Origin: Longimicrobiales bacterium
GTDB taxonomy: Bacteria > Gemmatimonadota > Gemmatimonadetes > Longimicrobiales > Gaopeijiaceae
NCBI GenBank assembly: GCA_963422615.1
Contig: OY730414.1
Coordinates: 1,178,001-1,242,000, forward strand
Reading direction: 5' to 3'
DNA length: 64,000 nt
Part shown: positions 2,930 to 60,353 of the stretch, in pieces
Numbering within the stretch: position 1 is the first letter of the stretch
Layout of the letters: each line of letters begins with the position of its first letter
Position numbers and translations under genes: made by a program
Notes under the pieces: generated by a model
What the model was told of the DNA's origin: nothing
What the model saw: the letters and a program-made list of their open reading frames with translations, nothing else
Databases searched by the model: none

Positions 2930-3531
2930 ACGCTCAAATCACCCAACACGGGATTGCGCTCTTTGACATCGGCAACGAGCCTGTCGAAAAAAGGTGATAG
3001 GTCTTCCTCACCTGAGACTATCGTCGGACCCGAGGAGAAATCGACTGAAATGACCGAGGACGCCTCAATCATACCGGTTCCCCAGGACGGCGGTCTTCGT
3101 CCCGTCAGCCGATTGATACGCCGCTTCAACAATTCTGCCCAGGTGCAACCGTGGCGTGCACTGTGAGAATCGGTGGCTATGTCGAACAGCATAATGTAGC
3201 CTATCACGATCTCCGGTGATTGCATCTGCAGATTGGCAACTTCGCCGATCATGTCATCAACGCGATTGGGAACGGTCCCGCCGAGATTCTTGAGAAGTGA
3301 TTTAAGGGATATCGCCAGCCGATACTTGCTATTCAGATTCCAGGCAACATCCCAAACTTTGCTTCGTCCACCCCCTGGGATCTTCGCCTCGGTTACTGCG
3401 CCAACGAGCCCACGCTTTGCGAGCTCTCTGATGCAGAAACCTGCCAACCCGTCCAGCCGCTTCGTAGAAGTTGCCTTAGCCTCCACCACCGCCTTCTCAT
3501 ACAGGGAGTCAACAGCATCTTGGATCGTCAA
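2926..3531 (-). CDS. putative Type II restriction endonuclease (PD-(D/E)XK fold, resembles the XhoI/PaeR7I family)
   Basis: KVWDVA...ISLKS...NRVDDMIGEVANL...IGYIML pattern; coupled to the MTase. Start set at TTG 3531 (GGAG upstream) rather than the ORF-track start 3813. Confidence 0.7.
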   Translation of the reverse strand: MTIQDAVDSLYEKAVVEAKATSTKRLDGLAGFCIRELAKRGLVGAVTEAKIPGGGRSKVWDVAWNLNSKYRLAISLKSLLKNLGGTVPNRVDDMIGEVANLQMQSPEIVIGYIMLFDIATDSHSARHGCTWAELLKRRINRLTGRRPPSWGTGMIEASSVISVDFSSGPTIVSGEEDLSPFFDRLVADVKERNPVLGDLSV

Positions 3532-14135: not shown

Positions 14136-16043
14136 GTGATCATTGGCAAGTTGATTCCGGGTCTGGGTTCGGACCCCACGCCTTGCCCAGGAGCCGGCTC
14201 TCCCGGGCCCGACGGGAGATCCGTCGCATCGCGCGGGTTCGCAGAGTGCTTGGCCGCTGGGGTTGTGCGGGTTTCCCGGGGAGCGTCGTGGTTGGCCGTA
14301 GTCTCCCGCCCGGCGATTGGGGCTTCGCGGCCGAACGTGGCCTCTCGCTTGGCCGTGGTTCTGGGCGCCGTCTTTGCGGCCGCTTGCACCCAGGGTGGCG
14401 ACCCTGCGGACCTGGTGTTGTGGGGCGGTCGGGTGGCGACGGTGAACGAGGAGGGCGCCGTCGTTGATGCCCTCGCCATCCGGGACGGGTGGATCGTCGC
14501 CGTGGGCAGCGATGCAGAGGTAGAAGGCTTCATCGGCAGCGAAACCGAGGTCGTCGAGCTGGATGGGCGCCTCGCCGTGCCGGGCTTCATTGAGGGTCAC
14601 GGCCACTACATGAGTCTGGGCAACGCCAAGACGATCCTGGACTTGAACGCCGCCGCCAACTGGGAGGAGATCGTGGCCATGGTGGCGGAGGCGGTGGCGG
14701 AAGCGGAGCCCGGGGAGTGGATTCGGGGTCGGGGGTGGCATCAGGAAAAGTGGGATCGCCCGCCGGAGCCGGCGGTGGAAGGCGCCCCGGTCCACGCTTC
14801 TCTGTCGGCCGCCAGCCCCGCCAACCCGGTGCTTCTGACCCACGCTTCGGGGCACGCCGCCTTCGCCAACGCCCTTGCGTTGCAGGCGGGCGGCTACAAC
14901 CGGGACTCGGAGCCCCCGCAGGGCGGAGCCCTGGTCCGGGACCCAGCGGGGGAGCTGACGGGGCTCCTCAGAGAGACGGCCCAGCGGCCGGTTGGGGACG
15001 CCTTCGCGGCCACCCTGGCCTCCTTGTCGGAGGAGGAGGCCGACGCGCGCTTTCGCCGGCAGGTGGCGCTGGCCGCGGAAGAGGCGCTGTCCAAGGGCGT
15101 AACCTCTTTTCAGGACGCCGGTTCCGGCTTCGGGACCATCGACCGACTTCGGAATCTGGAAGCGGAGGGGGCGCTGCCCGTCCGCCTCTACGTCATGGTG
15201 CGGGGAGCGTCGAACGAAGAGCTGAATGCCCGCCTCCCAGACTACTACATGCCCTCGCAAGGGGACGACTACCTGACCGTACGGTCCATCAAGCGACAGA
15301 TCGACGGGGCCTTGGGGTCCCACGGCGCCTGGCTCCTTGAGCCCTACCAGGACATGCCGTCATCCACGGGGCTGGTGCTGGAGACCGTCGAAGACATTAC
15401 CGGCACGGCGCACATCGCCCTCCGGAACGGGTTCCAGGTCAACACCCACGCGATCGGAGACCGGGCGAATCGGGAGGTTCTGGACCTCTACCACGCCGTC
15501 TTCGATTCCGCCGGACGGCAGGGCGGGGAGCTGCGCTGGCGAATCGAGCACGCTCAACACGTTCATCCCGACGACGTGACCCGCTTCGCCGAATTGGGAG
15601 TGATCGCCGCGATGCAGGGCGTCCACGCCACCTCCGACGCCCCGTGGGTCTACCGGCGCCTGGGGGCCGACCGGGCGGCGTCCGGGGCGTACGTCTGGCG
15701 AGCCTTCATGAATGCAGGGGTTCGGGTCACCAACGGGACGGACGTACCCGTAGAAGACATCGACCCGCTGGCCAGCTTCCATTCGTCCGTGGTCCGCCAG
15801 ACCGCTGCCGGCGACGACTTCTTCCCGGATCAGCGAATGACCCGGGAGGAGGCGCTGCGGAGCTACACGATCAACAACGCCTTCGCCGCCTTCGAAGAGG
15901 ACTACAAGGGCTCCCTTGAAGTGGGGAAGCTGGGGGATGTGGTGGTGCTGGACCGGGACATCCTGACCGTCCCCGATTCAGAACTTCTGGGCACCCGGGT
16001 GGATATGACCATCGTCGGCGGGGTGGTGCGGTACAGGCGGTGA
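14136..16043 (+). CDS. amidohydrolase (YtcJ-like), probable lipoprotein
   Basis: PGFIEGHGH, DGALGS, HAIGDRAN, RIEHAQ, GTDVPV motifs. Real start is probably near 14337, before the lipobox-like FAAAC. Confidence 0.9.
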   Translation: MIIGKLIPGLGSDPTPCPGAGSPGPDGRSVASRGFAECLAAGVVRVSRGASWLAVVSRPAIGASRPNVASRLAVVLGAVFAAACTQGGDPADLVLWGGRVATVNEEGAVVDALAIRDGWIVAVGSDAEVEGFIGSETEVVELDGRLAVPGFIEGHGHYMSLGNAKTILDLNAAANWEEIVAMVAEAVAEAEPGEWIRGRGWHQEKWDRPPEPAVEGAPVHASLSAASPANPVLLTHASGHAAFANALALQAGGYNRDSEPPQGGALVRDPAGELTGLLRETAQRPVGDAFAATLASLSEEEADARFRRQVALAAEEALSKGVTSFQDAGSGFGTIDRLRNLEAEGALPVRLYVMVRGASNEELNARLPDYYMPSQGDDYLTVRSIKRQIDGALGSHGAWLLEPYQDMPSSTGLVLETVEDITGTAHIALRNGFQVNTHAIGDRANREVLDLYHAVFDSAGRQGGELRWRIEHAQHVHPDDVTRFAELGVIAAMQGVHATSDAPWVYRRLGADRAASGAYVWRAFMNAGVRVTNGTDVPVEDIDPLASFHSSVVRQTAAGDDFFPDQRMTREEALRSYTINNAFAAFEEDYKGSLEVGKLGDVVVLDRDILTVPDSELLGTRVDMTIVGGVVRYRR

Positions 16044-16351
16044 TTGGGTGGGGCCGCAAGACTGGGCAGAAACGCGACTGGGGCCTCGTTTGCCGAGGAA
16101 TCCCGGCTGGCTGCAACGCCGGACGCGCGTCCAATGCCGTTGTCGCGTGTGGGATTGGCAGCGGGCAAACTCTGGGTCGTGTCGACGGGACTGACTGCCC
16201 AATGGTCCGATCGCATTCACAGTACCGCTTCAGGAGGGGGACCCTTCGCTACAGATCCCGGGCGGGCCGGACTTCCATCACCGCGGGCGTCGCATCCGGG
16301 ACGTGGTGGTCCTGCCGGACCGAATCTTCGTGGCTAGAGACATTGAGGTCG

Positions 16352-16504
16352 TCATCCGGCGGGTGATTCACCCTGCCTAAAGGACGCCCTCCGGCCCAGC
16401 ACCCGCGCAGCGACGCCCGCCCCCAGCGCATGGAGGTCCGGCCGCACCCGAGCCGCCAGCGCGCCGAAGACGGTTTGGTTTGACGGCGACGTGATCAGGA
16501 TGTG
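16352..16504 (-). other. alternative target-recognition cassette 5 of the Type ISP enzyme
   Basis: HILITSPSNQTVFGALAARVRPDLHALGAGVAARVLGR...*; in frame if tract 2 is C19 or C22. Confidence 0.85.
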
Positions 16505-16620
16505 CCCCTGCGGCGGGGCAGGGCGCGGCCCAACTGACCCAAGCCGATCAGGTCTGGCATGTGCGGGGTCGCCAGGCAAGCCGGCACGGTCCGACTGAAG
16601 GGGGAGGCGATCAGGATCGC
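16495..16620 (-). other. alternative target-recognition cassette 4
   Basis: AILIASPFSRTVPACLATPHMPDLIGLGQLGRALPRRRGTS*; in frame if tract 2 is C18 or C21. Confidence 0.85.
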
Positions 16621-16721
16621 GGGATGGCTCGGGTCTGGCGCCCGGTCGCGCAGAGGTCGAAGAGGGTGTCCGTCGCCAGGGTGGCGAAGGGGAGCTGCTG
16701 GGTCTGGTTGACGAGGATGGC
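16611..16721 (-). other. target-recognition cassette 3 (in frame as assembled)
   Basis: AILVNQTQQLPFATLATDTLFDLCATGRQTRAIPRS*; reached with C13 plus C20. Confidence 0.85.
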
Positions 16722-19700
16722 TTCTCTCCGTCTCCCTTTGCCCCAAGCCCTTCCGAGGACGCGCGATTTTCTGGGGGGGGGGGGGGGGGGGGAATGCGGG
16801 GCACCTACGTCAGAAGCCGGGGCAGCGCCCGCGTCTGTTGCGAGCCCTTGATCGCGGCCAGATCCGGCATCTTTGCGGTCGCCAGGGCCTGAAAGATCAT
16901 GTTGCTGGTCCCCGTGATCAGGATCGCCGGGGGGCCGCTCTTCCGGCTGGGTCCAGGGCGTGGAGGTCCGGGAGCTGTGCGGTGGGGAGGCACGCGAAGA
17001 CGGTTCGGTTGGAGGGGGATGCGATGAGAAGCCCGACGTTCGTCCGCCCCGGGCTGGAGGCGGTGTTGTTGGATTTTCTGGGGGGGGGGGGGCGATCCCG
17101 GAGGCCTTTGCAAACATGCGGGAAATCGTCTTCACCGAGGACAAGATCCGAGCGTCTTCATAGAGCCAGAGCTTGGTGAAGGGACGGTAGAGCACTTCTC
17201 GGATTTTCGCCTCGTCGAACGCCAGGGGCTGCTTTCGCTTCAACGAAGATTTGAGCACCCCGGTCCACTTGATCACGTCGATTCGGGTGTTCTGGGTCAG
17301 GCTGTCCAGGGCAGCTTTGTCGAAGCCCGTTCCCCGCCACTCCGCCAAAGTCCGGTTGAATTCGTCAATCAATGCGGAGACCTTCTTGCACAGGGCGTCG
17401 CGCGAAAACGAATACACGTATGCGTCGCAGGCGGTTGTCAAGCCGATCGCGTGCCTCCGCACAGCGGCGGGGGTGTCTTCTTTCTTGGGTCGGGCCAAGG
17501 GCAGGAGCTCGAAAAACGTCTCGTCCCCCAGATTCATCCAGTCGTGTCTCTGATTGACCGGCACGACCTTGAAGTGATCGGACAAGACATCGCCCAGCTG
17601 CGCGAGCCATTGGAACTTCTGTTCCCGCGTGTACCGCTCCGGCACTTCGGCGTAGTGAAGGGTGGCGGGAGCGGCAAGTTTCCGATCCGGGTTGCGAACG
17701 AGGACCGTGATCTGCACCCCGTTTCGAGTGGCCACACCAAAGATCGGGTCACCTTCCTTCCTCCGCTCCTCCCCCGACTTGTAGGCGTTGCCGCGCAGGT
17801 TCACGACGTAGATGTCGGTAAATTCGTCCCGCACGGCGGCGCGCATGCCGGTCAGGGACGGCGCGTCTGCGAAGCTGTTGGGCGTCACCAGCGCGACGAC
17901 GGCAGGCCCGTCCTTGACCTCGGCTGGCATGTCGACTCGGTCCGATGCCCAGCGGCACGCCTTGACGTAGAGATTGCCGGCGGCCTTGCCCAAGCCTTGG
18001 CCCTTGACCTTTTTGTTCCAGAATCCGTAGGTGTCGGCAACTCGCGCGGAAAGGTCCGGATATTCCCTATTCGGGTTGTCGTCCGACGCGCGTTTTTGTC
18101 CGGCCGACCAGGGCGGATTGCCAACGACTACCCAAATCGGCTTGCGGTTCTGCTCTTCTTGCCGTTCATAGTTCTCGTCGATTCCTTCAAAGAATTCAAA
18201 CTGTCGCCGGGCTGAATGCTCGGTCATCAGGAAGGTGTCGGTGAGAAGGATGCGGTTGAACGGTTCGTACGGGACCATTCCCGCACGGCCCTTTGCACGA
18301 TCCTTGCTTTGAAGCCGATCGTAGCGGGCTTCTTCGATCGTAAGCGCGGCAATGTAGTAGGCCAGCAGCACGATCTCGTTGGCCCAGATCTCGTGCCGGT
18401 ACTTGCGCTCCAGGTCTTCGTCCCGGATCAGGTATTCGCCCTTTGCATCCCTGGCGGTCAGGAGCCGGTTCACAAAGGTGCCCGTTCCCACAAAGGGGTC
18501 CAGGATCGTCACCCCCTCATCGGTGAGCCCCCTGCCGAACTGATCCTTGCAGACGGCGTTCACGGACCGCAACATGAAGTCCACCAGCGGGATAGGGGTG
18601 TACGCGATCCCCAGGGACTTGACCTCATTTTTCATGGCGGCCGCGAAGAAGCCGTCGTAGATCTCCCGCAGGATGTCCAGCTTTTCGCTTCCGCTGACCG
18701 CGCCGTCGAAGGCTCGCTCCATGGTTCGGTAGGCCCGATTCAAGGGGCGCAGGTCTTCGTCGAAGGCGACCCCCTCCTTGGCAAAATCCGCCAGAAGCCG
18801 GTCAATGCTTCGGGAGATCGGGTTCCGGCGGGCGAACTCCGATTCCGCGAACATCACCCGAAAGACCGGGATCGTCACGACATGCTGGGCCACCATCTGG
18901 ATGGTGGTTTCGTCTGTGACCGCCGGGTCCACGGAATCACGCAGGGAGCCGGCGAAGGCGTGCAACGCGGTCTGGGCCGCCGGGCTGGAGGCGACGAGGT
19001 GATCAATCTTCCGCCGCACGGTCTTGCAGATGCTGGCGGCCTTCTGGCCCCAGCGGGGATACATGTGCTTGTCTCCGACCGAGTCCACGACCATCGAGGC
19101 AAACTGGTCGTTGAGTGCCAGCGCCAGCTCGGTCTGAACTGCGTCGCTGATGCTCCGGGAGCCGCCGTTGTTTCCTGAAAGCCGGGTGCTGAGCCTAAAC
19201 GGAGACTTCTTTTGGACGGCTCTGGGGTTGTTCAACCAGTAGTCGATCCGATCGTCGTGGCTCCGAAGCGCACGGGCAACTTGCCACACCGGAGAGAAGT
19301 CTCCCTCCTTGAGGATCGTGCGGGCCCGCTCGTCGACTTCGCCTTCTCCGAAATCCGGAACGACGACGGGGATGACGATGTAGCCCTTTATCTTCCCCTC
19401 GGCCTTGCGCATCGCCCGCCCCACCGCCTGGGTGATGTCGATCTCGGACCTGCGGGGCTCGAGAAAGACGACGGCGTCCAGGGCCGGCACGTCCACGCCC
19501 TCGCTGAGCACCTGGGCGTTGGTCAGCACGCGGCAGGTCGTGGGGGTCGGGCTTTCGTGGGGGCGGTAGGGGATCGCAGCGTGTTCCCGGAGCAGGTGTA
19601 GCTGGCGGGCGCGCTCATGCGCGGGTGTGCCGCCGTCGATGTGGCTGACATCGAGGACGAGGAAGCCCTTCCGCTCCCCAGCGGGGTGTTTCAAGGTCAT

Positions 19701-21257
19701 GGCCGAACCGATCTTGTCCCAATGTTCGGCGACGAGCTTGGACTTCTTCACGGTGTTGCAGAAGGCGATCGCCGAGCGGGCCGGAACCTTCCCCTGTGCA
19801 GTGTCGATCTTCCCGGCTGGGCGGGTTCCCACCTTGGCGACAGAGTGGGGCGTGGCGAGGGCGTCCCAGCAGCCGGCCAGCTTTACGGCCGAGTCCAACG
19901 ACACGTCGGAATCGGCGCGGGCCGCCTTGGTGCCCACCACGGACTGCTGGTAGGCGGCTTCCGACGCCACGATCACCAGCACCTCATAGTCCGAAAGACA
20001 GTTGGCATCCAGCGCTTCGGCGAAGCTCATCCTGAAGAACTCGGGGCCGTATTTTGCCTCATCGTCCATCGAATAGCTGTCGCCGTCGAAGCCTTCCGAT
20101 TCCAGCTTCTTCTTCAGGCGTTTCGTGAAGACGCGGGGCGTGGCCGTCATGAAGAGGCGTTTTGCCGCGGGCAGATAATCGTCCCGGTGAACGAGCAGGA
20201 AGGGTGACACGCCCTCGTAGCCCTTCACCTTGCTCCGGTCGGGGACGCCGGTGGTGCGGTGGGCCTCATCACAGATCACCAAGTCGAAGCGGAAGCCGGG
20301 CAGTGCCTCCAGGGCCGTGGCGATCTTGGACGTCGACTGATACGTGGAAAAGACCACCCGCATGGCGCCGCCGGGTACGGGTTGGGCAAGCTCCTTGGCA
20401 AGCCGGTCCGGGTCGGTCGTCACCGGCATCGCGAGTTCGGTCAAGTTGCCCACGGTACCGGAAGCTTCGCCCGTCTTGCGGGCCGTCGTGCTGTCGGAGC
20501 ACACGCCCAGGTAGCGAAGATCAAGCGTCCGCTGCCTAGACCATTCCCGCATGGTCTGGCCCATCAGGGCAATCGATGGCACCAGGTACAGGACCGTGCT
20601 GCCCAAGCCCGCCTCCTGCTCGGCCGCCCGGAGGGCCACGAACGACTTCCCGGTTCCACAGGGGAGGATCAGCTTCCCCCTGTCGGAGCTCGTGAAGCCG
20701 GCCTGGATCTTCTCCAGCGCCTGCCGCTGATGGGCCCAGGGGGTATGCTTGGGCAGATCGACCGGGTCCACCAGCCTTGCCGCGTCGAAGGAAGGCCGCC
20801 AGTCGTCGACCCAGTCGTCCATCTCCGCCGTGTGCAGCACATGGCAGCGGGGGTCCGCCTTTTCCAGCTTCTGATAGCCGATTTTGGGGATGTCCCTGCT
20901 CGTGATCAGCATTCGGGCCTTGAAGTCCGCCCCATCCGAGTCCGCGAGAAAGCTGTCGATCTCGGACGTCTTGGTTTTGCTCTTGCCGTATTTGCACTGG
21001 ATCGCGCAGAAGCCGCCTCCCCAGGCCACGCGTTGACGGGCCACCAAGTCGATGCCCGTGTCCTGTCGCGAATATCCACGCGCCTCCCGGTCCGGCCAGT
21101 TCTGCCAGAGCCAGACGTCCTCGAACCGGTCCCGCCCGTATTCGCCCGGGTGGGACTTCAGGGCGTCCCGCACCACAAACTCGAAGCGCTTGCCCGCCAG
21201 GGCGTGCGAAGGGTCATCGTGACGGAGCGATCGAATCGCTTCGGCGATATGGGCCAT
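16611..21257 (-). CDS. Type ISP restriction-modification enzyme (Mrr-like nuclease, SF2 helicase, m6A MTase, N-part of TRD) with variable C-terminus
   Basis: DTGIDLVA..AIQCK; LPCGTGKS; CDEAH; MTATPR; QAVGRAMRK; DPFVGTGTF; GNPPW; LYRPFTK. ATG 21257 overlaps the upstream TGA. Confidence 0.93.
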   Translation of the reverse strand: MAHIAEAIRSLRHDDPSHALAGKRFEFVVRDALKSHPGEYGRDRFEDVWLWQNWPDREARGYSRQDTGIDLVARQRVAWGGGFCAIQCKYGKSKTKTSEIDSFLADSDGADFKARMLITSRDIPKIGYQKLEKADPRCHVLHTAEMDDWVDDWRPSFDAARLVDPVDLPKHTPWAHQRQALEKIQAGFTSSDRGKLILPCGTGKSFVALRAAEQEAGLGSTVLYLVPSIALMGQTMREWSRQRTLDLRYLGVCSDSTTARKTGEASGTVGNLTELAMPVTTDPDRLAKELAQPVPGGAMRVVFSTYQSTSKIATALEALPGFRFDLVICDEAHRTTGVPDRSKVKGYEGVSPFLLVHRDDYLPAAKRLFMTATPRVFTKRLKKKLESEGFDGDSYSMDDEAKYGPEFFRMSFAEALDANCLSDYEVLVIVASEAAYQQSVVGTKAARADSDVSLDSAVKLAGCWDALATPHSVAKVGTRPAGKIDTAQGKVPARSAIAFCNTVKKSKLVAEHWDKIGSAMTLKHPAGERKGFLVLDVSHIDGGTPAHERARQLHLLREHAAIPYRPHESPTPTTCRVLTNAQVLSEGVDVPALDAVVFLEPRRSEIDITQAVGRAMRKAEGKIKGYIVIPVVVPDFGEGEVDERARTILKEGDFSPVWQVARALRSHDDRIDYWLNNPRAVQKKSPFRLSTRLSGNNGGSRSISDAVQTELALALNDQFASMVVDSVGDKHMYPRWGQKAASICKTVRRKIDHLVASSPAAQTALHAFAGSLRDSVDPAVTDETTIQMVAQHVVTIPVFRVMFAESEFARRNPISRSIDRLLADFAKEGVAFDEDLRPLNRAYRTMERAFDGAVSGSEKLDILREIYDGFFAAAMKNEVKSLGIAYTPIPLVDFMLRSVNAVCKDQFGRGLTDEGVTILDPFVGTGTFVNRLLTARDAKGEYLIRDEDLERKYRHEIWANEIVLLAYYIAALTIEEARYDRLQSKDRAKGRAGMVPYEPFNRILLTDTFLMTEHSARRQFEFFEGIDENYERQEEQNRKPIWVVVGNPPWSAGQKRASDDNPNREYPDLSARVADTYGFWNKKVKGQGLGKAAGNLYVKACRWASDRVDMPAEVKDGPAVVALVTPNSFADAPSLTGMRAAVRDEFTDIYVVNLRGNAYKSGEERRKEGDPIFGVATRNGVQITVLVRNPDRKLAAPATLHYAEVPERYTREQKFQWLAQLGDVLSDHFKVVPVNQRHDWMNLGDETFFELLPLARPKKEDTPAAVRRHAIGLTTACDAYVYSFSRDALCKKVSALIDEFNRTLAEWRGTGFDKAALDSLTQNTRIDVIKWTGVLKSSLKRKQPLAFDEAKIREVLYRPFTKLWLYEDARILSSVKTISRMFAKASGIAPPPPENPTTPPPARGGRTSGFSSHPPPTEPSSRASPPHSSRTSTPWTQPEERPPGDPDHGDQQHDLSGPGDRKDAGSGRDQGLATDAGAAPASDVGAPHSPPPPPPRKSRVLGRAWGKGRRREAILVNQTQQLPFATLATDTLFDLCATGRQTRAIPRS
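16773..16792 (-). repeat. homopolymer C20 on the coding strand (tract 2)
   Basis: G20 on the + strand; followed on the coding strand by AGAAAATC. Confidence 0.95.
16805..16927 (-). other. alternative target-recognition cassette 2
   Basis: AILITGTSNMIFQALATAKMPDLAAIKGSQQTRALPRLLT*; in frame if tract 1 is C12 or C15. Confidence 0.85.
16918..17040 (-). other. alternative target-recognition cassette 1
   Basis: Manually translated: NVGLLIASPSNRTVFACLPTAQLPDLHALDPAGRAAPRRS*; in frame if tract 1 is C14 or C11. Confidence 0.85.
17080..17092 (-). repeat. homopolymer C13 on the coding strand (tract 1)
   Basis: G13 on the + strand; followed on the coding strand by AGAAAATC. Confidence 0.95.
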
Positions 21258-22216
21258 CAGGCTTGCTCCCGGGCCCCCGATGCGGGTGTTTCGCTGGGGT
21301 CGAGCCCTCGGGGGAGCCGGGTGTCGTCCTGCACTCCGGTGCCCTGGCTTGGTGCCCCACCGGAGGCCCAAGCGGACGCGTCGGCGGGCATGGCCAACCG
21401 CCCTTCCAGGGAAGGCGGCAACGACCGAATGATCTCGTCGGAACGGATGCCGACGTGGATGAGCCGCCGAAGATGGCGGATCAGCTGATAGGAGTCCTCC
21501 GCCCAGACGTGCCACTGGTTGGGGTCGTCCGGAACCGGCCAATCGGCCTTGCGGCGCAGGCTGTCTACCGCCCATTCAAGCGGCGACCGCCCGGATACCT
21601 TATACGCGAGTGCCTCCGGTGGGATGCCCTCCAACCGGCAACCATCGTTGACTTCCAGAACCGCCGTTCCGGTCTCTTCGTTTCGCCGGAGGCGCATGCG
21701 GGAACCGGTGATGCGATACGCATCGCCCGGGGTATCCCCCGCATCGGCCACCCCCGAACCGCGTTCCCCGCTGTTTGAATCGCATTCCCCGCTGTTTGCG
21801 CCGCGTTCTCCGCCTTCGATTTCCGCGAAGAGGGAGGTTTCAGCTAGCGCTCCCCCCCCCCCTGAATTCCGGGAGGCCGGGTCCACAAAACGAACCCGCA
21901 CGTCGGCCTCGGGACAGCTTTCGTAACCGGTGTGCAAATCCATCAATTCGCGCCCGGCGGTCCGGAAAGCTTCAAAGTCTGCGGCAAACGGGATTCTGGG
22001 AAGATTGCGCTGAAGATCGTGCTTATACGTTTCACGCCAGTCGGGGGCGTGCATCACCCCGTAAAAGTACTCCCAGATGTCGTCCTTCGTGATCCCATCG
22101 TCACCGTAGGCCCTCCGAAACTGGTTCAAACACCAGTCGGTGACGTTGTCCAGATCCCCTTCTCCTGGGATTGCCGGCTCGAACATCCCCCCTTGGCTCG
22201 GGGTTGGCATCGGCAA
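21257..22216 (-). CDS. stand-alone C-terminal part of the Type ISP specificity domain
   Basis: DNVTDWCLNQFR..ITKDDIWEYFYGVMHAPDWRETY..DL..NLPRIP..F..AGRELMDLH..YE, GIPPEALAYKVSGRSPLEW and DDPN are the normal extreme C-terminus of LlaBIII-like enzymes. Confidence 0.88.
   Translation of the reverse strand: MPMPTPSQGGMFEPAIPGEGDLDNVTDWCLNQFRRAYGDDGITKDDIWEYFYGVMHAPDWRETYKHDLQRNLPRIPFAADFEAFRTAGRELMDLHTGYESCPEADVRVRFVDPASRNSGGGGALAETSLFAEIEGGERGANSGECDSNSGERGSGVADAGDTPGDAYRITGSRMRLRRNEETGTAVLEVNDGCRLEGIPPEALAYKVSGRSPLEWAVDSLRRKADWPVPDDPNQWHVWAEDSYQLIRHLRRLIHVGIRSDEIIRSLPPSLEGRLAMPADASAWASGGAPSQGTGVQDDTRLPRGLDPSETPASGAREQA
21852..21862 (-). repeat. homopolymer G11 on the coding strand of the ISP C-terminal subunit gene
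   Basis: C11 on the + strand; encodes SGGGG in frame. Confidence 0.9.
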
Positions 22217-22418
22217 TCCTCACTTGTGGAAGTCTCTCAAGCGTGATGGACAGCGGGAGCGCGGCCCGGGTGCCTGATGGCGCCTGATCCTTATCGTCCC
22301 CGCTTGATCAATAGCGTCCAACCCTGCCAACTTTGCGCCACTCCCGGCTCGCGGCAACCCCAGCTCGCGGCAACCCCGACCCGCTGCGCCTCCGAACCCT
22401 CTTCCTAAGGAATCCTGC

Positions 22419-25400
22419 ATGGACGACGCTGCCCCCCTGCCCCCGACCCCTTTCACCCGCCGTTGCCCTTCCGTTGCTCTGGTGCTTCCGGCCTTCGCGC
22501 TGATCGCCTTCGCCCCGGCCACCCTGACCCAGGAGCCGGATCCGGAGGTCGTACGCCAGGCGGTTCGGGGACTCCAGTTGCGGGAAGTCGGCCCTGCCCT
22601 CATGGGGGGCCGGATTGCCGACATCGCTGTGCATCCCCGGGATCCCGTCGTCTGGTACGTGGCGGCGGGATCGGGAGGGCTGTGGAAGACGACGAACGCC
22701 GGGACGTCCTGGACCCCGGTCTTCGACGACCAGCCCTCGTATTCCATTGGTTCGGTCACCATCGACCCCGCCGACCCGGCCGTGGTGTGGGTGGGCACGG
22801 GAGAGAACGTCAGCGGTCGGCACGTCGCGTGGGGGGACGGCGTGTACCGGAGTCCGGACGGCGGCAAGACGTGGCGCCGGATGGGGCTCGACACCTCCGA
22901 ACACATCGGAAAGATCCTGGTGGATCCCAGGGACGGGGACGTTGTGTTTGCGGCCTCCGAAGGTCCCTTGTGGTCGTCGGGGGGAGAGCGGGGCCTCTAC
23001 AAGACGACGGACCGGGGGGAGACCTGGCGGGCCGTCCTGCAGGTGGACGAGAACACGGGCGTCACCGACGTGGAGTTCGACCCCCGGAACCCCGACGTTC
23101 TGTACGCGGCCACCTACGAGCGGCGCCGGAGCGTTTGGGCCCTCCTGGCAGGCGGCCCCGGTTCAGGCGTCTACAAGTCCGTCGACGGTGGGGAGACGTG
23201 GCGGGAGGTGACGGACGGGCTCCCGGACGGCGACATGGGGAAGATCGGCCTGGACGTGTCGGGCGCCAGCCCCAACGTGATTTATGCCACGATCGAAGCC
23301 GGGCCAGGGAAGGCCGGCTTCTACCGATCGACGGACCGGGGGGAGAGCTGGGAGCGGCGAAACGCCTACCTGTCCGGGGGCACGGGACCCCACTACTACC
23401 AGGAAATCGAGGCGTCTCCCCACGATGTGGATGTGGTCTACCAGATGGACGTGTTCGTTCATGTGACCCGGGACGGCGGATCGACCTTTGCGGTGCTGGG
23501 GACGGGTCGCGAAAAACACAGCGACAATCATGCCCTCTGGATCGACCCCGAGGATGGGCGGCACCTGCTGGCCGGGACCGACGCGGGCCTCTACGAGACC
23601 TTCGATGAGGGAGCCACGTGGCGCCACTTTCCCAATCTTCCCATCTCCCAGTTCTACCGGCTGGCCCTGGACAACTCCGAGCCCTTCTACAACATCCTGG
23701 GCGGGGCTCAGGACCTGGGGACCCTGCTGGGGCCTTCCCGGACGCTGAACATGGAGGGGGTTCGCAACCGGGACTGGTACGTTCCCCTGGGCGCAGACGG
23801 GTACGCCGCCGCCTTCGATCCGGAAGACCCGGACATCGCGTACATCCAGTCTCAGCAGGGCAACCTCCAGCGCCTGGACCGGCGGAGCGAAGAGGTGATC
23901 GGGATCCGTCCCCTCCCGGCGCCTGGCGACCCTCCCGAGCGCTGGAACTGGGATTCGCCCTTGCTCGTGAGCCCTCATTCCCCGTCCCGGATCTACTACG
24001 CCTCCCAGCGACTCTGGAGGAGCGACGACCGGGGGGACTCATGGCGGGCCGTGAGCGAGGACCTGACCCGAAACCTGAACCGCTACACGCTGGCGATGGC
24101 CGGACGGGTCCGAAGCGTGGATGCCCTATACGGCAACACCGCCATGTCCTGGTACTCCACCATCACCACCCTCTCCGAGTCCCCGGTGGCCGAGGGGGTG
24201 CTGTACGTGGGCACCGACGACGGGCTCATCCAGGTGAGCGAGGACGGGGGCGGGTCGTGGCGGGAAGCGGCCCCCCTCCCGGGGGTGCCTCCCCGAGCGT
24301 TCGTGAACCAGGTCCGGGCGTCTCTTCATGACCGGGCCACCGTGTTCGCGGCTGCCGATGCCCACAAGGAAGGGGACTATGCGCCGTACCTCTTCGAGAG
24401 CAACGACTTCGGGCGGAGTTGGCGGTCCGTTTCCGGTGACCTTCGGGAGGGGAACGTCATCTGGTCCGTGGAGCAGGACCACATGAACTCCTCCCTCCTC
24501 TTTGTCGGTACCGAGTTCGGCGTCTACTTCACACCCAACCGTGGCGTGAACTGGGTGGAGCTGGGTGCAGGGGTTCCGACCATCGCCTTTAGGGATTTGG
24601 AAATCCACCGCCGAGAAAACGACCTGGTGGGCGCGACCTTCGGCCGCGGCTTCTACGTCCTGGACGACTATACTCCTCTTCGAAACATCGCCGCCGGCGC
24701 CCTGACGGAAGAGGAGGTCCTCTTTCCCGTGAGGGACGCCTGGTGGTACGTGCCTAGCGTGCCCATGCAGGCACCGGGCCAGCCGACCCTGGGGACGACC
24801 CACTACACGGCCCCCAACCCCGACTTCGGTGCCACCTTCACCTACTATCTGGCCGAAGCCCGAGAGACCTCCCGGGAGACACGCCGTCGCGCCGAGAGGG
24901 AGCTGCGGGAGCGGGGAACAGACGTTCCCTTCCCCGGCTACGAACGACTGGCGGCCGAGGCCCTCGAGGGCGAACCCCGGATTGCCCTTCTGGTGACCGA
25001 TGCCGAGGGTCAGCCGGTGCGCCGCGTTACGGGTCCCGCTTCGGCCGGCCTCCACCGGGTCACCTGGGATTTGCGGCGCCCGCCTCCCGACCCCGTCAAC
25101 CTGACTACGCCCGGTTTCGTTCCGCCTTGGGCGGGGGAGCCTCGGGGGCCCCTGGCACCGCCGGGGAGGTATCGGGTCGAAATGGCGTTGGTTACGGAAG
25201 ACGGGATGACGCCCCTGGGCGGGTCCCGGGAATTTGACGTGAAAGCGGTTCCCACCGCTCGGGCGGGGGTCGACTTCCAGGCCGCCATGGCCTTCCAGGA
25301 GGAAACGGCCGACCTGCTTCGCCGAGCCCGGGGAGCCGCTGCGGAAGTCGGCCGAGCCCGGGCGCGGCTTCGCCACATGCGCGAGGCACTGAACGAAACC

Positions 25401-44611: not shown

Positions 44612-44628
44612 CCCCCCCCCCCCCCCCC
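44612..44628 (+). repeat. homopolymer C17 (intergenic)
   Basis: Counted directly from the sequence. Confidence 0.9.
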
Positions 44629-44838: not shown

Positions 44839-47725
44839 ATGCCACAACCTCGTCAGATTCATGCCGTTGCATTGCTGACGGCAATCCTGGCCACACCCGC
44901 CCAGGCGCAAGAGCGCGCCACGGTGGGGGGTACGGTCATCGACGCAGCAACGATGGCCCCGCTGGAAGGCGTTCAAGTTGCCATTGAGGGGACAAACTTC
45001 GGCTCGCTTTCCAATTCGGCGGGCCGTTTCGTCATCCTCAACGTTCCCCCGGGCACCCACACGTTGCGCGCCGTATTCATCGGGTATGGTCCTGTCGCAC
45101 AGGACTTCACGGTGGAGCCCGGCGGCACCGCTGTGATCGACTTCAACCTGGCTCAATCGGTGCTCCAGCTGGATGAAATCGTCGTTACCGCGACGGGGGA
45201 GCAGCGCAAGCGGGAGCTCGGCAATGCGGTCGGCGAAATCCGCGCCACCGAAGTCGTAGAGATCGCGCCGATCAACAACCTCGCCGACCTGATTCAGGGC
45301 CGTCAGGCGGGGGTCCAGGTCTTCAACTCGGCGGGCACTTCGGGGGCCGGTTCCCGCATTCGCGTCCGCGGATCCAGCTCGATCTCCCTGTCCAACGATC
45401 CCATCCTGGTCGTGGACGGGATCCGGGTCGACAGCCGCCAGAGCGGTCTCGGAGCGGGAGGCCAGGAGGCTTCCAGGCTGGACGACTTCAACCCCGAAGA
45501 CATCGAGTCCATCGAAATCGTGAAGGGACCGTCGGCCGCCGCACTCTACGGTACCGAGGCGGCCAACGGCGTAATCCGGATCACGACCAAGCGGGGTCAG
45601 CCCGGGGAGACGCGCTGGAACGTCTGGGCCGAGGCAGGACTCATTCAGGAGCCCAACACCTACCCTTTGGGCTACTTGGGACTGGACGCGAACAGTGACA
45701 CCTACGCCACGGCGTGCCGCCTCAACGAGGTCGCCCAGGGGCTCTGTGCCCAAACCGGTGTCGAGTCCTATCAGGTCCTCCACGATCCTGATCTGTCCCC
45801 GATCGATGACGGAAGCCGGAACCAGATGGGGATCTCGGTCTCTGGCGGAAGCGAAGCCGTCAGCTACTACGTCTCGGGAGAGATTGAGGGCGAAGTCGGA
45901 CCCTACTCCCTGCCGACCCCCGACCGGGAGCCTGTCGTACCTCGACAGCCACTTCGCGTACATGGGGAACGACAACAACTCCTTCGGCATGCTTCCGAGC
46001 GCCTTCTTCGGCACCTCGGCTAGGCCGTGGTCCTTCCAGAAGCCGGCCCAGCTCTTCGGGCGGACATTCTACCAGGACACGCAGCGCTTCACCGGCTCGG
46101 GCACGGTCACGTGGGATCCGATGGACTGGCTTTCCTTTCGGGCAACGGGGGGATTGGACTACTACAATCGCCAAGACGTGTCGTTCTTTGCCCGAGACAT
46201 CGGCGTCCCCGGCACGAGCAACCTGGGCCGCAAGGACACCGACTTCCGCAACTCCTGGCAGTACACGCTGGATGGCAGCACGACCGCATCCTTCGATCTG
46301 ACCGACGGGATCACGTCCCGGTCAACCGTCGGCGTTCAATACTTCGAAAACCAGTTCGCGGGCACCAACGCGTGGGGCATCGACATCGTGAACGGGGCCT
46401 CATCGATCGGCGTTGCCGCGGAGACGTTCTCCGGCGAGGTCCACATCTTCGAAAAGACCGCCGGCCTTTTTGTCGACCAGCAGTTCGGGATCAATGACCG
46501 GCTCTTCCTGACCGGGGCGATCCGGGCGGATGACAACAGTGCGTTCGGTCAGGACTTCGACCTGATCTACTATCCGAAGGCGGGGCTGTCGTGGATTGCT
46601 TCCGAAGAGTCCTTCTTTCCGCAGATCTCCTTCCTGGACCAGCTGCGCATACGGGCCGCGTGGGGGCGCTCCGGGTTGCAGCCCGGGTCGGACGACGCGA
46701 TCCGGACGCTGAGCGCCAATGCGATCACCACACCGGACGACCAGACCGGTTCGGGCGTGTCGATCGGCAATATCGGCAATAGCCTGCTCGAGCCCGAAAA
46801 GTCGAGCGAGATCGAAGCGGGTCTCGACGCCGAGTTCTTCAGCGGCCGGGCCGCGCTGGAGCTGACCTATTACGACAAACGCACCGACGGCGCCCTGATC
46901 ACCGTGCCTCTGGCGCCTTCGTTGGGCGCGAGCGCCACCCGCTGGGTCAATATCGGCGAGGTCCAGAACGCCGGGTGGGAAGCGGCGATCACCGGAACCT
47001 TTGTTGAAACCAACACGGTGAGCTGGGAGATCGGTCTGTCGGGCTCAATCAACAACAACGAACTGCTGTCGCTGGGCGAAGGAACGGAGCCCATCGGCAC
47101 CCAGACCCGCTTTGTGCCGGGCTTTCCGCTGGGAGGACAGTGGGACCGCCCGATCGTGGGCCACAACGATGCCGATGGCAACGGCATCATCACGCCGGAC
47201 GAGCTGACGATCGGAGACACCATCGAGTACATCGGCCCGGGCATGCCCGAGAACCAGCTCTCGATCTCATCGAGCCTGCGACTTCCGGGCGGAATCCGGG
47301 TCACCGGGCTTCTGGACTACCGGGGCGACTACATCGCATACAACAACACGGAACGCTTCCGTTGCCGCTTCCGGGTTTGCCAGGCTCTGATCGATCCGGA
47401 GACGCCCCTTGCGGAGCAGGCGCGGGCCGTCGCATCGCTCCTTCATCCGAGCCAGACCGTGTGGGGCTACATGGAACCGGGAGATTTCTGGAAGCTCCGC
47501 GAGGTCTCGGCGCGCTTGGACCTGCCGGAGCGCTTCGCAAACAGTTTCCGAGCTTCGAGGGCGTCGGTCACGATCACGGGGCGCAACCTGGCCACGTGGA
47601 CGGACTACTCGGGGATGGATCCGGAAATCAACTCGAACGGTTCGGGGGACAACTTCGGCATCTCGGAGTTTCTGACCCAACCGCCGGTCCGATTCTACAC
47701 GGTCCGCTTCAACTTCAGCTTCTAG
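44839..47725 (+). pseudogene. SusC/RagA-like TonB-dependent receptor, frameshifted near 45925
   Basis: The N-part has plug motifs (IESIEIVKGPSAAALYG.EAANGVI.ITTKRG). The barrel part (..NDNN..R.DDNSAFG..PEKS.E.E..FNFSF*) is in a different frame. Confidence 0.85.
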
Positions 47726-59177: not shown

Positions 59178-60353
59178 TTAACCGGGTTCGCTTGTGGGTA
59201 GGGACTGCCAATGCGCATCCATGGCCTCGTCCGAGAGCTTGGCCGGGTTCACCCTGAAGACACCCCTGCCGCTCCCGGTCACCGCCCCTACATGCTCCAG
59301 CCAATTCAGACAGGTGCGGACTTGGTAGTGTGGAGGCGCGGCATCGCCGTCCCTGACCCGTTCAAGGATCTCGGCCCACTTGAATTGATTCTCTTGCGAC
59401 CTGAGGTTTCTCATTGTCCGGGCAATACGCCAAAGCACGCTCTGCGGAATACGTCGGATGTACTTACGCCCCGTCTTTTCTGACCAGCGGGCCACATGGA
59501 GTTTGTCGCCGTCCTTCCAGAATCGGGGGGGGGGGGGGGGCAACGGGCCCGCATCGCCTCCGCCTGGTTTCTCTTTCCTAGGTGAGGTGGCGGAATCACC
59601 AGAAACAGTGCCGGCCGCTACTTCTCCCGATTCGTCCCGTTCCCTTTCCAAGGCCGATTGCAACCGATCATTGATCCGGTCATCAATAAATTCTTGGAAT
59701 GCATGCTTGGTCAGATTCGTAAACTTCTCTATACGGACCTTGGTCTTGGGGCCACCATGCACCTGATCCACGATAAACCGAACAAAGTCTGGATTCGGAC
59801 GTTTGAGCGTATCAGTGAGTACCCACTTTATCGCTGCCGTGTATTTTAGGTTCTCGGCGGATCTGATAGAATCTTCAGAATCGAAAGATTCTTTTGTAAA
59901 GCGTTTGAGATTCTGGGCATCATCTTTGGTAATCGTTGACAAGTCGAATTCAAAGAATGGTTTCTCATCCATCCTGTTTGGTTCTTCAAGGTCCGCGAAA
60001 AAGCGATAGATCATACCATCGGTCAGGATACCGAACCGGGAGGAGGAACTCGAAAAATACCGAAAGAGCTGGGTAACGCTGCTGAGGTCGAGCTTAGATC
60101 CGAATGCCTTGCACTCAACGAGAATGATGGGGCGATTTTCCTTGAGAACCGCGTAATCCACCTTCTCACCGCGTTTTATCCCTACATCGGCGACATACTC
60201 AGGTACAACCTCCAGCGGATCAAACACATCGTATCCCAGTGCTTGCAAGAACGGCATCACAAGAGCTGTCTTCGTCGCTTCTTCGGTACGTGTATGTGGC
60301 ACGCGTGCACGGGCGCTGCTTGATAGTACCTTGAGCCGATCGATGAAATCCAT
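59178..60353 (-). CDS. HsdR-N-like (PD-(D/E)XK) endonuclease protein with an appended uncharacterised C-terminal domain
   Basis: TEEATKTALVMPFLQALGYDVFDPLEVVPEY..GEKVDYA..LVECK..QLFRYF..ILTDG; visibly AT-richer DNA. Confidence 0.88.
   Translation of the reverse strand: MDFIDRLKVLSSSARARVPHTRTEEATKTALVMPFLQALGYDVFDPLEVVPEYVADVGIKRGEKVDYAVLKENRPIILVECKAFGSKLDLSSVTQLFRYFSSSSSRFGILTDGMIYRFFADLEEPNRMDEKPFFEFDLSTITKDDAQNLKRFTKESFDSEDSIRSAENLKYTAAIKWVLTDTLKRPNPDFVRFIVDQVHGGPKTKVRIEKFTNLTKHAFQEFIDDRINDRLQSALERERDESGEVAAGTVSGDSATSPRKEKPGGGDAGPLPPPPPRFWKDGDKLHVARWSEKTGRKYIRRIPQSVLWRIARTMRNLRSQENQFKWAEILERVRDGDAAPPHYQVRTCLNWLEHVGAVTGSGRGVFRVNPAKLSDEAMDAHWQSLPTSEPG
59525..59540 (-). repeat. homopolymer C16 on the coding strand at a domain junction
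   Basis: G16 on the + strand; encodes PPPPP immediately before RFWKDG. Confidence 0.93.

Follow-up and report, generated by a model that had tools for sequence, protein, structure and literature searches.

A Type ISP-derived restriction-modification locus with its constant tail in a separate gene and a putative slippage switch among five recognition cassettes

A 64,000-nucleotide stretch of a Longimicrobiales bacterium (assembly GCA_963422615.1, contig OY730414.1, positions 1,178,001 to 1,242,000; hereafter the window) carries a locus derived from restriction-modification enzymes of Type ISP, which are treated as single-chain proteins (PMC6158711, PMC12707154; publications are cited here for the accessible parts of their texts). 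At this locus the end of the target recognition domain (TRD) is encoded by a small gene placed upstream of the main gene, and the main gene runs into an array of five short cassettes behind two homopolymeric tracts. The locus probably specifies a two-chain enzyme whose specificity is set by a five-state slippage switch, with the constant chain supplied in trans. A preliminary description of this DNA had proposed that the tail is separate and that the TRD is assembled from two chains, and the co-occurrence of the two genes and a model of their complex make this the best reading. The enabling step is the fission of the gene, its tail being variable in position and coupling. The features of the locus are as follows.

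22217..22221, minus strand: Shine-Dalgarno-like GAGGA, seen in the sequence 6 nt 5' of the ATG at 22210, with a putative role in initiation
21257..22210, minus strand: small gene, 317 amino acids, from the ATG at 22210 (PF18135, PDB alignments, AlphaFold2 model, Foldseek)
21852..21862, minus strand: G11 tract within the small gene, a candidate ON/OFF switch (sequence; repeats in relatives)
21255..21259, minus strand: TGATG stop-start overlap, candidate translational coupling (sequence)
16611..21257, minus strand: main gene, 1548 amino acids as assembled, with Mrr nuclease, SF2 helicase, coupler, N6-methyltransferase, TRD to loop V, linker and cassette 3
17080..17092, minus strand: switch tract 1, a run of 13 C (C13) on the coding strand, directly 3' of loop V
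16918..17034, minus strand: cassette 1, selected by one frame of tract 1
16805..16927, minus strand: cassette 2, selected by another frame of tract 1
16773..16792, minus strand: switch tract 2, a run of 20 C (C20) on the coding strand (sequence)
16611..16721, minus strand: cassette 3, in frame as assembled
16495..16620, minus strand: cassette 4, selected by another frame of tract 2
16352..16504, minus strand: cassette 5, selected by the remaining, third frame of tract 2

The main gene follows the Type ISP domain order (Mrr nuclease, SF2 helicase, coupler, gamma N6-methyltransferase, TRD) in Pfam and PDB comparisons, and its catalytic motifs could be located. When LlaGI is numbered as chain 5FFJ plus 164, anchored on N1327, R1329, H1368, G1372 and Q1373, the main chain aligns with it as far as residue 1331, through loop V, which is almost constant across 63 main chains. 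The five cassettes correspond to LlaGI 1342-1380, that is, to the core hairpin and loop VI, a correspondence bridged by a fused relative; the best PDB match of the cassette profile is LlaGI chain 1182-1215 (1346-1379), a weak one with an E-value of 0.27, and no cassette match lies 5' of tract 1, the main-chain match to LlaGI ending at loop V. By PDB alignments the small protein takes up the sequence at LlaGI ~1385 and continues to the end, comprising the last helices of the TRD core (~55 residues) and the guide subdomain. Main chain, cassette and small protein thereby tile the LlaGI sequence in order, and a complete TRD of core, jaw and guide is obtained only by summing both genes. The Pfam family Type_ISP_C (PF18135) divides in the same way: the match of the main gene is confined to positions 6-101, the small gene matches positions 167-337 (E 4e-40), and neither a further match nor a second copy of either piece was found in the 2.57-Mb single-contig genome. 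The preliminary description was thus correct that the main gene lacks the constant C-terminal region, and the motifs, terminal TGA and ATG overlap that it quoted are all present in the upstream reading frame. Its boundaries for that frame (21257..22216, 319 amino acids) hold at the end and probably not at the start, where the ATG at 22210, giving 317 amino acids and preceded by GAGGA, appears a likelier initiation codon than the TTG at 22216.

In none of the frame combinations is the tail continuous with the main chain. Because a Type ISP enzyme is a single polypeptide, the locus is filed, from its sequence, as Type ISP-derived and set outside Type ISP proper. Enzymes of that type translocate along DNA and cleave it, driven by ATP, and place m6A on one strand of an asymmetric site of 6-7 bp. 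NCBIfam gave no match above cut-off, PADLOC assigns both genes to one single-chain model, and gene callers tag the pieces as partial or hypothetical proteins, labels under which such loci are easily overlooked. In LlaGI, loop VI reads position +3 of the target, and the guide steers the DNA and reads no bases (PMC4872093); by this token the small protein would be structural and the cassette the variable reader.

The AlphaFold2 model of the small protein has a mean predicted local distance difference test (pLDDT) score of 75, with a disordered insert at about amino acids 112-160, and its first Foldseek matches are DrdV, LlaGI and LlaBIII. The TGA of the small gene (21259-21257) shares its A with the ATG of the main gene, an arrangement that recurs in the related loci L004, L013, L019 and L085 and by which the two genes are probably coupled. 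Gain or loss of one base in the G11 tract would truncate the small protein at 123 or 121 amino acids, and repeats occur at the same position in the small genes of L001, L011, L013 and L019; the small gene thus probably has an ON/OFF tract of its own. Slippage at this tract as a means of joining the small gene to the main chain was ruled out, both shifts meeting a stop at once. A promoter scan found no promoter, and a screen of small-gene starts for Shine-Dalgarno sequences was positive at 34 of 80 related loci.

The nine frame combinations of the two switch tracts yield five products of 1446-1634 amino acids, every one of which terminates in a cassette and a stop codon. The wider pattern was examined in 73 arrays, 72 from related loci and that of the window; these loci are kin, and neither array nor locus counts are independent trials. 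Simple repeats are present in 72 of the 73 arrays, the first usually at the tract-1 position after loop V, and their density in arrays is ~3.6 per kb, the figure for the host genome being 0.06 per kb. Among 163 repeat sites the unit is 1 nt at 122, 2 nt at 31, 4 nt at 8, 5 nt at one and 7 nt at one, and at none is it 3 or 6 nt. Counting repeat units of 1 to 7 nt, since homopolymers alone undercount, every cassette is reachable by slippage in 64 of the 73 arrays, dead-end frames are absent from 55, and the number of cassettes equals twice the number of tracts plus one in 50. Arrays hold 3 to 8 cassettes drawn from ~10 recurring types, and a type is repeated within a locus in only 8 of 365 cassettes, compared with a shuffled mean of 78 and a minimum of 62 (a count that omits four multi-array loci). 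The expectation of the preliminary description that each cassette ends in its own stop codon is supported across the relatives, with a stop within 10 codons in 373 of 404 cassette matches and no cassette sharing a frame with the small gene at any of 80 loci. Runs of at least 10 G or C number only 16 in the 2.57-Mb genome, of which 5 lie in the window and 3 in the locus. The locus does not fit an inversion shufflon: all cassettes share one orientation, no flanking inverted repeats are found among the 25 longest of 354 listed, and no recombinase-like open reading frame (ORF) was seen beside the locus by eye (without a profile scan).

The related loci place this arrangement in a conserved lineage. 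From 95 relatives found, 80 genomic loci were kept, with record titles that are nearly all Acidimicrobiia and in two cases Thermoanaerobaculia; many bear Candidatus names that we take to be those of sponge symbionts. The small and main genes are fused in none of the 80. Its placement varies: 38 loci have the small gene 3' of the array, and 22 have it upstream in the same orientation as the main gene (a script assigned 20 of these, while L013 and L079, which overlap the main-gene start, were reassigned by eye). In 11 it is divergent, in one it sits between two main genes, and 8 have no main gene nearby. A further 31 metagenomic loci show the same forms, several being duplicates of the first set and a few having frameshifted small genes, and the same break is found in all 80 genomic and most of the 31 metagenomic loci. 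Quick trees of the small protein (81 split rows and 60 of 120 fused) and of the methyltransferase-TRD region (65 split rows and 25 of 117 fused) both unite the split genes in one clade, with a Shimodaira-Hasegawa-like approximate likelihood ratio (SH-aLRT) support of 100, and in both the window groups with L001 and L011 (99). Nested inside the clade is one fused protein, P0001, which combines a cassette of the clade's type and the tail in a single polypeptide and is a probable re-fusion. The small gene is under purifying selection, the median ratio of nonsynonymous to synonymous substitution rates (dN/dS) being 0.275 over 987 pairs, 6 of which exceed 0.5; a pseudogene fragment does not fit this ratio or the break common to the clade. 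Viral contigs yielded no relative. Of 60 relatives of the host, one gave a match, to an enzyme that is fused and whose gene has a separate frameshift close to the 5' end, and two of 301 genomes in a class-wide sample were positive. At L049, L053 and L024, tandem copies of main gene and array surround one small gene, a possible route between the downstream and upstream orders. Cassettes and a small gene with no main gene detected nearby were seen at L126, L127, L033, L068 and L080, either remnants or cassette stores.

That the two chains belong together is indicated by their co-occurrence, a survey of which the preliminary description had recommended. In two family samples, chosen independently of the small gene and yet overlapping with the 80 loci, the main gene of the clade occurs in 24 of 81 and 12 of 40 genomes; the small gene accompanies it in all 24 (once in two pieces) and in 10 of the 12, respectively, so that 34 of the 36 main-positive genomes possess it and the other two are cut by contig edges. 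Around three main genes whose arrays are complete, windows of 19-20 kb contain no small gene, and the same genomes carry one 36 kb, 107 kb or further away. At the 11 divergent loci synthesis as one chain is impossible. Prediction of the complex had been recommended as well. Main-chain residues 1232-1548 and small-protein residues 14-272 scored 0.75, the best control reaching 0.02, with runs agreeing in at least 18% of contacts and partner pLDDT of at least 73; the mark set for this score is reached by 116 of 157 solved pairs and 2 of 215 mismatched ones. Because halves of split genes pass by their likeness to solved structures, the score demonstrates likeness and not binding, and the cassette lies outside the confident contacts.

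From an anatomy, conservation and frame logic that are observed, the following mechanism may be proposed. An ancestral gene would have been cut once, directly after the ~40-residue segment that contains the core hairpin and loop VI (LlaGI 1342-1380), and the cut would have made this base-reading segment the C-terminus of the main chain, free to be multiplied into an array of cassettes, each with its own stop codon and in differing frames, 3' of repeats prone to slippage. Tract 1 would lead to cassette 1, to cassette 2, or by read-through to tract 2, which in turn would lead to cassette 3, 4 or 5, so that each of the nine combinations would supply a cassette. The small protein would provide the remaining core and the guide in trans for any of them, and its gene would be free to lie downstream, upstream, divergently or far off. 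The expected result is a population divided into groups with different sites of methylation and restriction, the difference including at least target position +3. Judged from the sequence, the enzyme should be active and change its specificity, the chains presumably bind in the cell, the tracts presumably slip in this host, and the system may act against phage.

Several observations weigh against this two-chain switch. The confident contacts of the complex model belong to the constant part, the cassette not being among them, and in the model of the main chain alone the cassette has low pLDDT. Cassettes 3-5 sit on linkers of ~125-200 frame-derived residues, which may lower activity; unreachable cassettes occur in 9 of the 73 arrays and dead-end frames in 18; and the direct evidence for slippage is thin, consisting of two near-identical pairs that differ at a repeat, possibly through assembly error. 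The small gene is present without a detected main gene in 6 of 40 genomes of the second family, and 5 of the 8 orphan small genes among the 80 loci have more than 5 kb of flanking sequence, a sign of decay. Small genes seem broken in G387, G471 and L111-L113, and L101 is an in-frame deletion join that lacks loops V and VI.

Each of the rival explanations draws on some of these data. The preliminary description had held that moving the tail upstream, with translational coupling, is itself what enabled the switch, a proposal that now appears decidedly improbable. In its favour, the split clade of the small-gene tree has upstream rows as its basal branches, the downstream and divergent ones falling within it at weak support (86), and a stop-start overlap exists at 8 of 23 upstream junctions. 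Yet the other 15 junctions lack an overlap, and slippage gives access to every cassette in 33 of the 38 arrays with the small gene downstream and 10 of the 11 with it divergent, as in 19 of the 22 with it upstream, which contradicts the upstream position as a requirement. On the main-chain tree, moreover, upstream loci need at least 7 changes and their monophyly is rejected by the approximately unbiased test (p-AU 0.00075), the labels having been fixed by gene order before the tree was built and the test chosen after the tree was inspected; on the ancestral gene order the two trees disagree. What the upstream position may offer is suggested by the distribution of further tracts. Repeats within or at the start of the small gene are found at 10 of 22 upstream and none of 38 downstream loci, and repeats in or just before the body of the main gene at 26 of 36 loci with the small gene downstream, 9 of 10 with it divergent and 9 of 22 with it upstream; most loci thus appear to have an ON/OFF tract somewhere, for which an upstream coupled gene would be one place. 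Tracts of G10-G15 between divergent genes (L018, L031, L041 and L043 near 7880) are a possible promoter-spacing switch. A different objection accepts the two-chain enzyme and regards the cassettes as a recombination store or as mostly an ON/OFF device, only the nearest folding in and fewer than five specificities resulting. This is unlikely, though it retains some weight: the linkers to distal cassettes are long and frame-derived, models do not place the cassette confidently, and cassette 2 is replaced by 118 other letters in an assembly contig from another study (run X6), an indication that cassettes are also exchanged between strains. It does not readily account for the frames that stay open to distal cassettes, for the 55 arrays without a dead-end frame, for repeat units that avoid multiples of 3, or for the many assemblies in which the in-frame cassette is a distal one, and the lack of flanking inverted repeats among the 25 longest listed also speaks against it.

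The alternative that the small protein is dispensable or a mere accessory, for stability or DNA steering, with a main chain that works alone, is very improbable. The guide of LlaGI reads no bases (PMC4872093), three main genes have no neighbouring small gene, and orphan small genes exist; but the small gene carries part of the TRD core as well as the guide, is held by purifying selection, and is missing from the sampled main-positive genomes only at contig edges. That the split reflects pseudogene fragments or an artefact of assembly is largely refuted and has next to no probability. The source is metagenome-assembled, long G runs are error-prone and some loci have decayed, but independent contigs cross the junction of the two genes, the break is shared across the relatives, the catalytic motifs are present, and dN/dS is low. 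A contig of run X2, possibly from the same campaign as the source assembly, spans 17978-22800 with 0 substitutions and 0 gaps, and the contig of run X6 spans 20992-21541 with 34 substitutions and 0 gaps; none of the contigs listed for run X5 bridges the junction, and of the raw Hi-C reads of run X11 none aligned. Over 15800-17997 a run X2 contig has 0 substitutions and 5 gap letters, which were not counted as slippage. With the same order at 22 of the 80 related loci, misassembly, against which the preliminary description had cautioned, is unlikely, and the gene order at the locus is real.

How the array form arose may be glimpsed in fused relatives. L120 (G063) is a fused Type ISP gene with G11 tracts at 3015 and 6407, one of them after loop V, and one recognition segment. 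L118:6900-9120 (G065:C1 ~312900-315100) is a Type ISP gene of another lineage, with (AG)22 in the methyltransferase part and, 3' of loop V, (ATCC)14 followed by a pair of cassettes, of which the one shares the frame of the tail and the other ends at its own stop; it is a candidate intermediate or an independent origin. L118 illustrates the constraint behind the proposal of the preliminary description: as long as the gene is fused, the tail can be read in a single frame only. Fission lifts this constraint, and L120 and L118 would mark the path to the array form, the order of events being an extrapolation. In the sister group, P0002 has an insert of ~100 residues with an SL repeat between the recognition segment and the tail. 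Elsewhere in the window, an ORF at 59178-60353 on the minus strand resembles, by eye, a Type I restriction N-terminal-domain protein and contains a C16 tract (59525-59540) on its coding strand, and is possibly a second phase-variable defence gene. A C17 tract (44612-44628) lies 5' of a TonB-dependent receptor-like gene (44839 onward) that is seemingly split over two frames near 45700-46020.

The locus represents a conserved natural two-chain form, from which it would follow that a TRD tolerates a break within its core and completion in trans. The ~10 recurring loop-VI types on a near-constant scaffold amount to a natural library with which a recognition code for the bases beside the methylated adenine, an unmet goal according to PMC4872093, becomes directly testable. 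If the proposed mechanism is true, repeat-driven phase variation would be extended from two states to five or more, and bet-hedging defence or an epigenetic switch would be indicated for symbiont lineages, in which 24 of 81 and 12 of 40 sampled genomes of two families carry the system.

A literature search, whose coverage left most subscription papers and REBASE notes outside, found no split Type ISP enzyme or frame-selected cassette array. A preprint on leaky Type III repeats (10.64898/2026.04.01.715767), in its accessible part, concerns a different system and was set aside. LlaGI and LlaBIII (PMC4872093; PDB 5FFJ, 4XQK) are alike in domain order and motifs; here, by contrast, the sequence is divided between two polypeptides, the break lying within the TRD core past loop VI, with five frame-selected copies of the loop VI segment and a tail gene that is mobile in position. 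Similar in logic is the two-state, single-chain frameshift specificity switch of the Helicobacter pylori Type IIG enzymes JHP1272 / HP1353-1354 (PMC3936762), in which a homopolymer adds a copy of a C-terminal recognition element, changing the bases beside the methylated A, and a second tract acts ON/OFF. The window likewise has a repeat tract before a C-terminal recognition-element copy, and the H. pylori element is plausibly the structural equivalent of these cassettes (PMC3936762, PMC4872093). There, however, the extra element displaces one resident in a complete single-chain short form; here no resident copy is found, and instead 3 to 8 cassettes in all three frames are served by chained tracts and a separate constant gene. 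In repeat-switched hsdS systems (NgoAV; extended three-TRD hsdS; PMC7383803) slippage always leaves an active enzyme of changed specificity, and the specificity subunit is similarly built from separate chains, but with two states in which whole TRDs are gained or lost and, in the accessible text, no array of sub-domain cassettes. Inversion shufflons of Type I and II restriction-modification systems (PMC9881135, PMC7383803) share the multi-state choice among stored recognition segments, and differ in requiring DNA inversion, where here co-oriented cassettes are chosen by reading frame; the accessible text of PMC9881135 treats inversion switching without mention of ISP. On balance the evidence tilts towards a distinct mechanism of diversity, by which fission makes a C-terminus of what had been an internal DNA-reading loop, chained tracts pick among 2n+1 cassettes in all three frames (five in the window, at least seven in relatives), dead states are few and no recombinase is involved, and a separate constant chain, sharable by several main genes of one genome, completes each variant.

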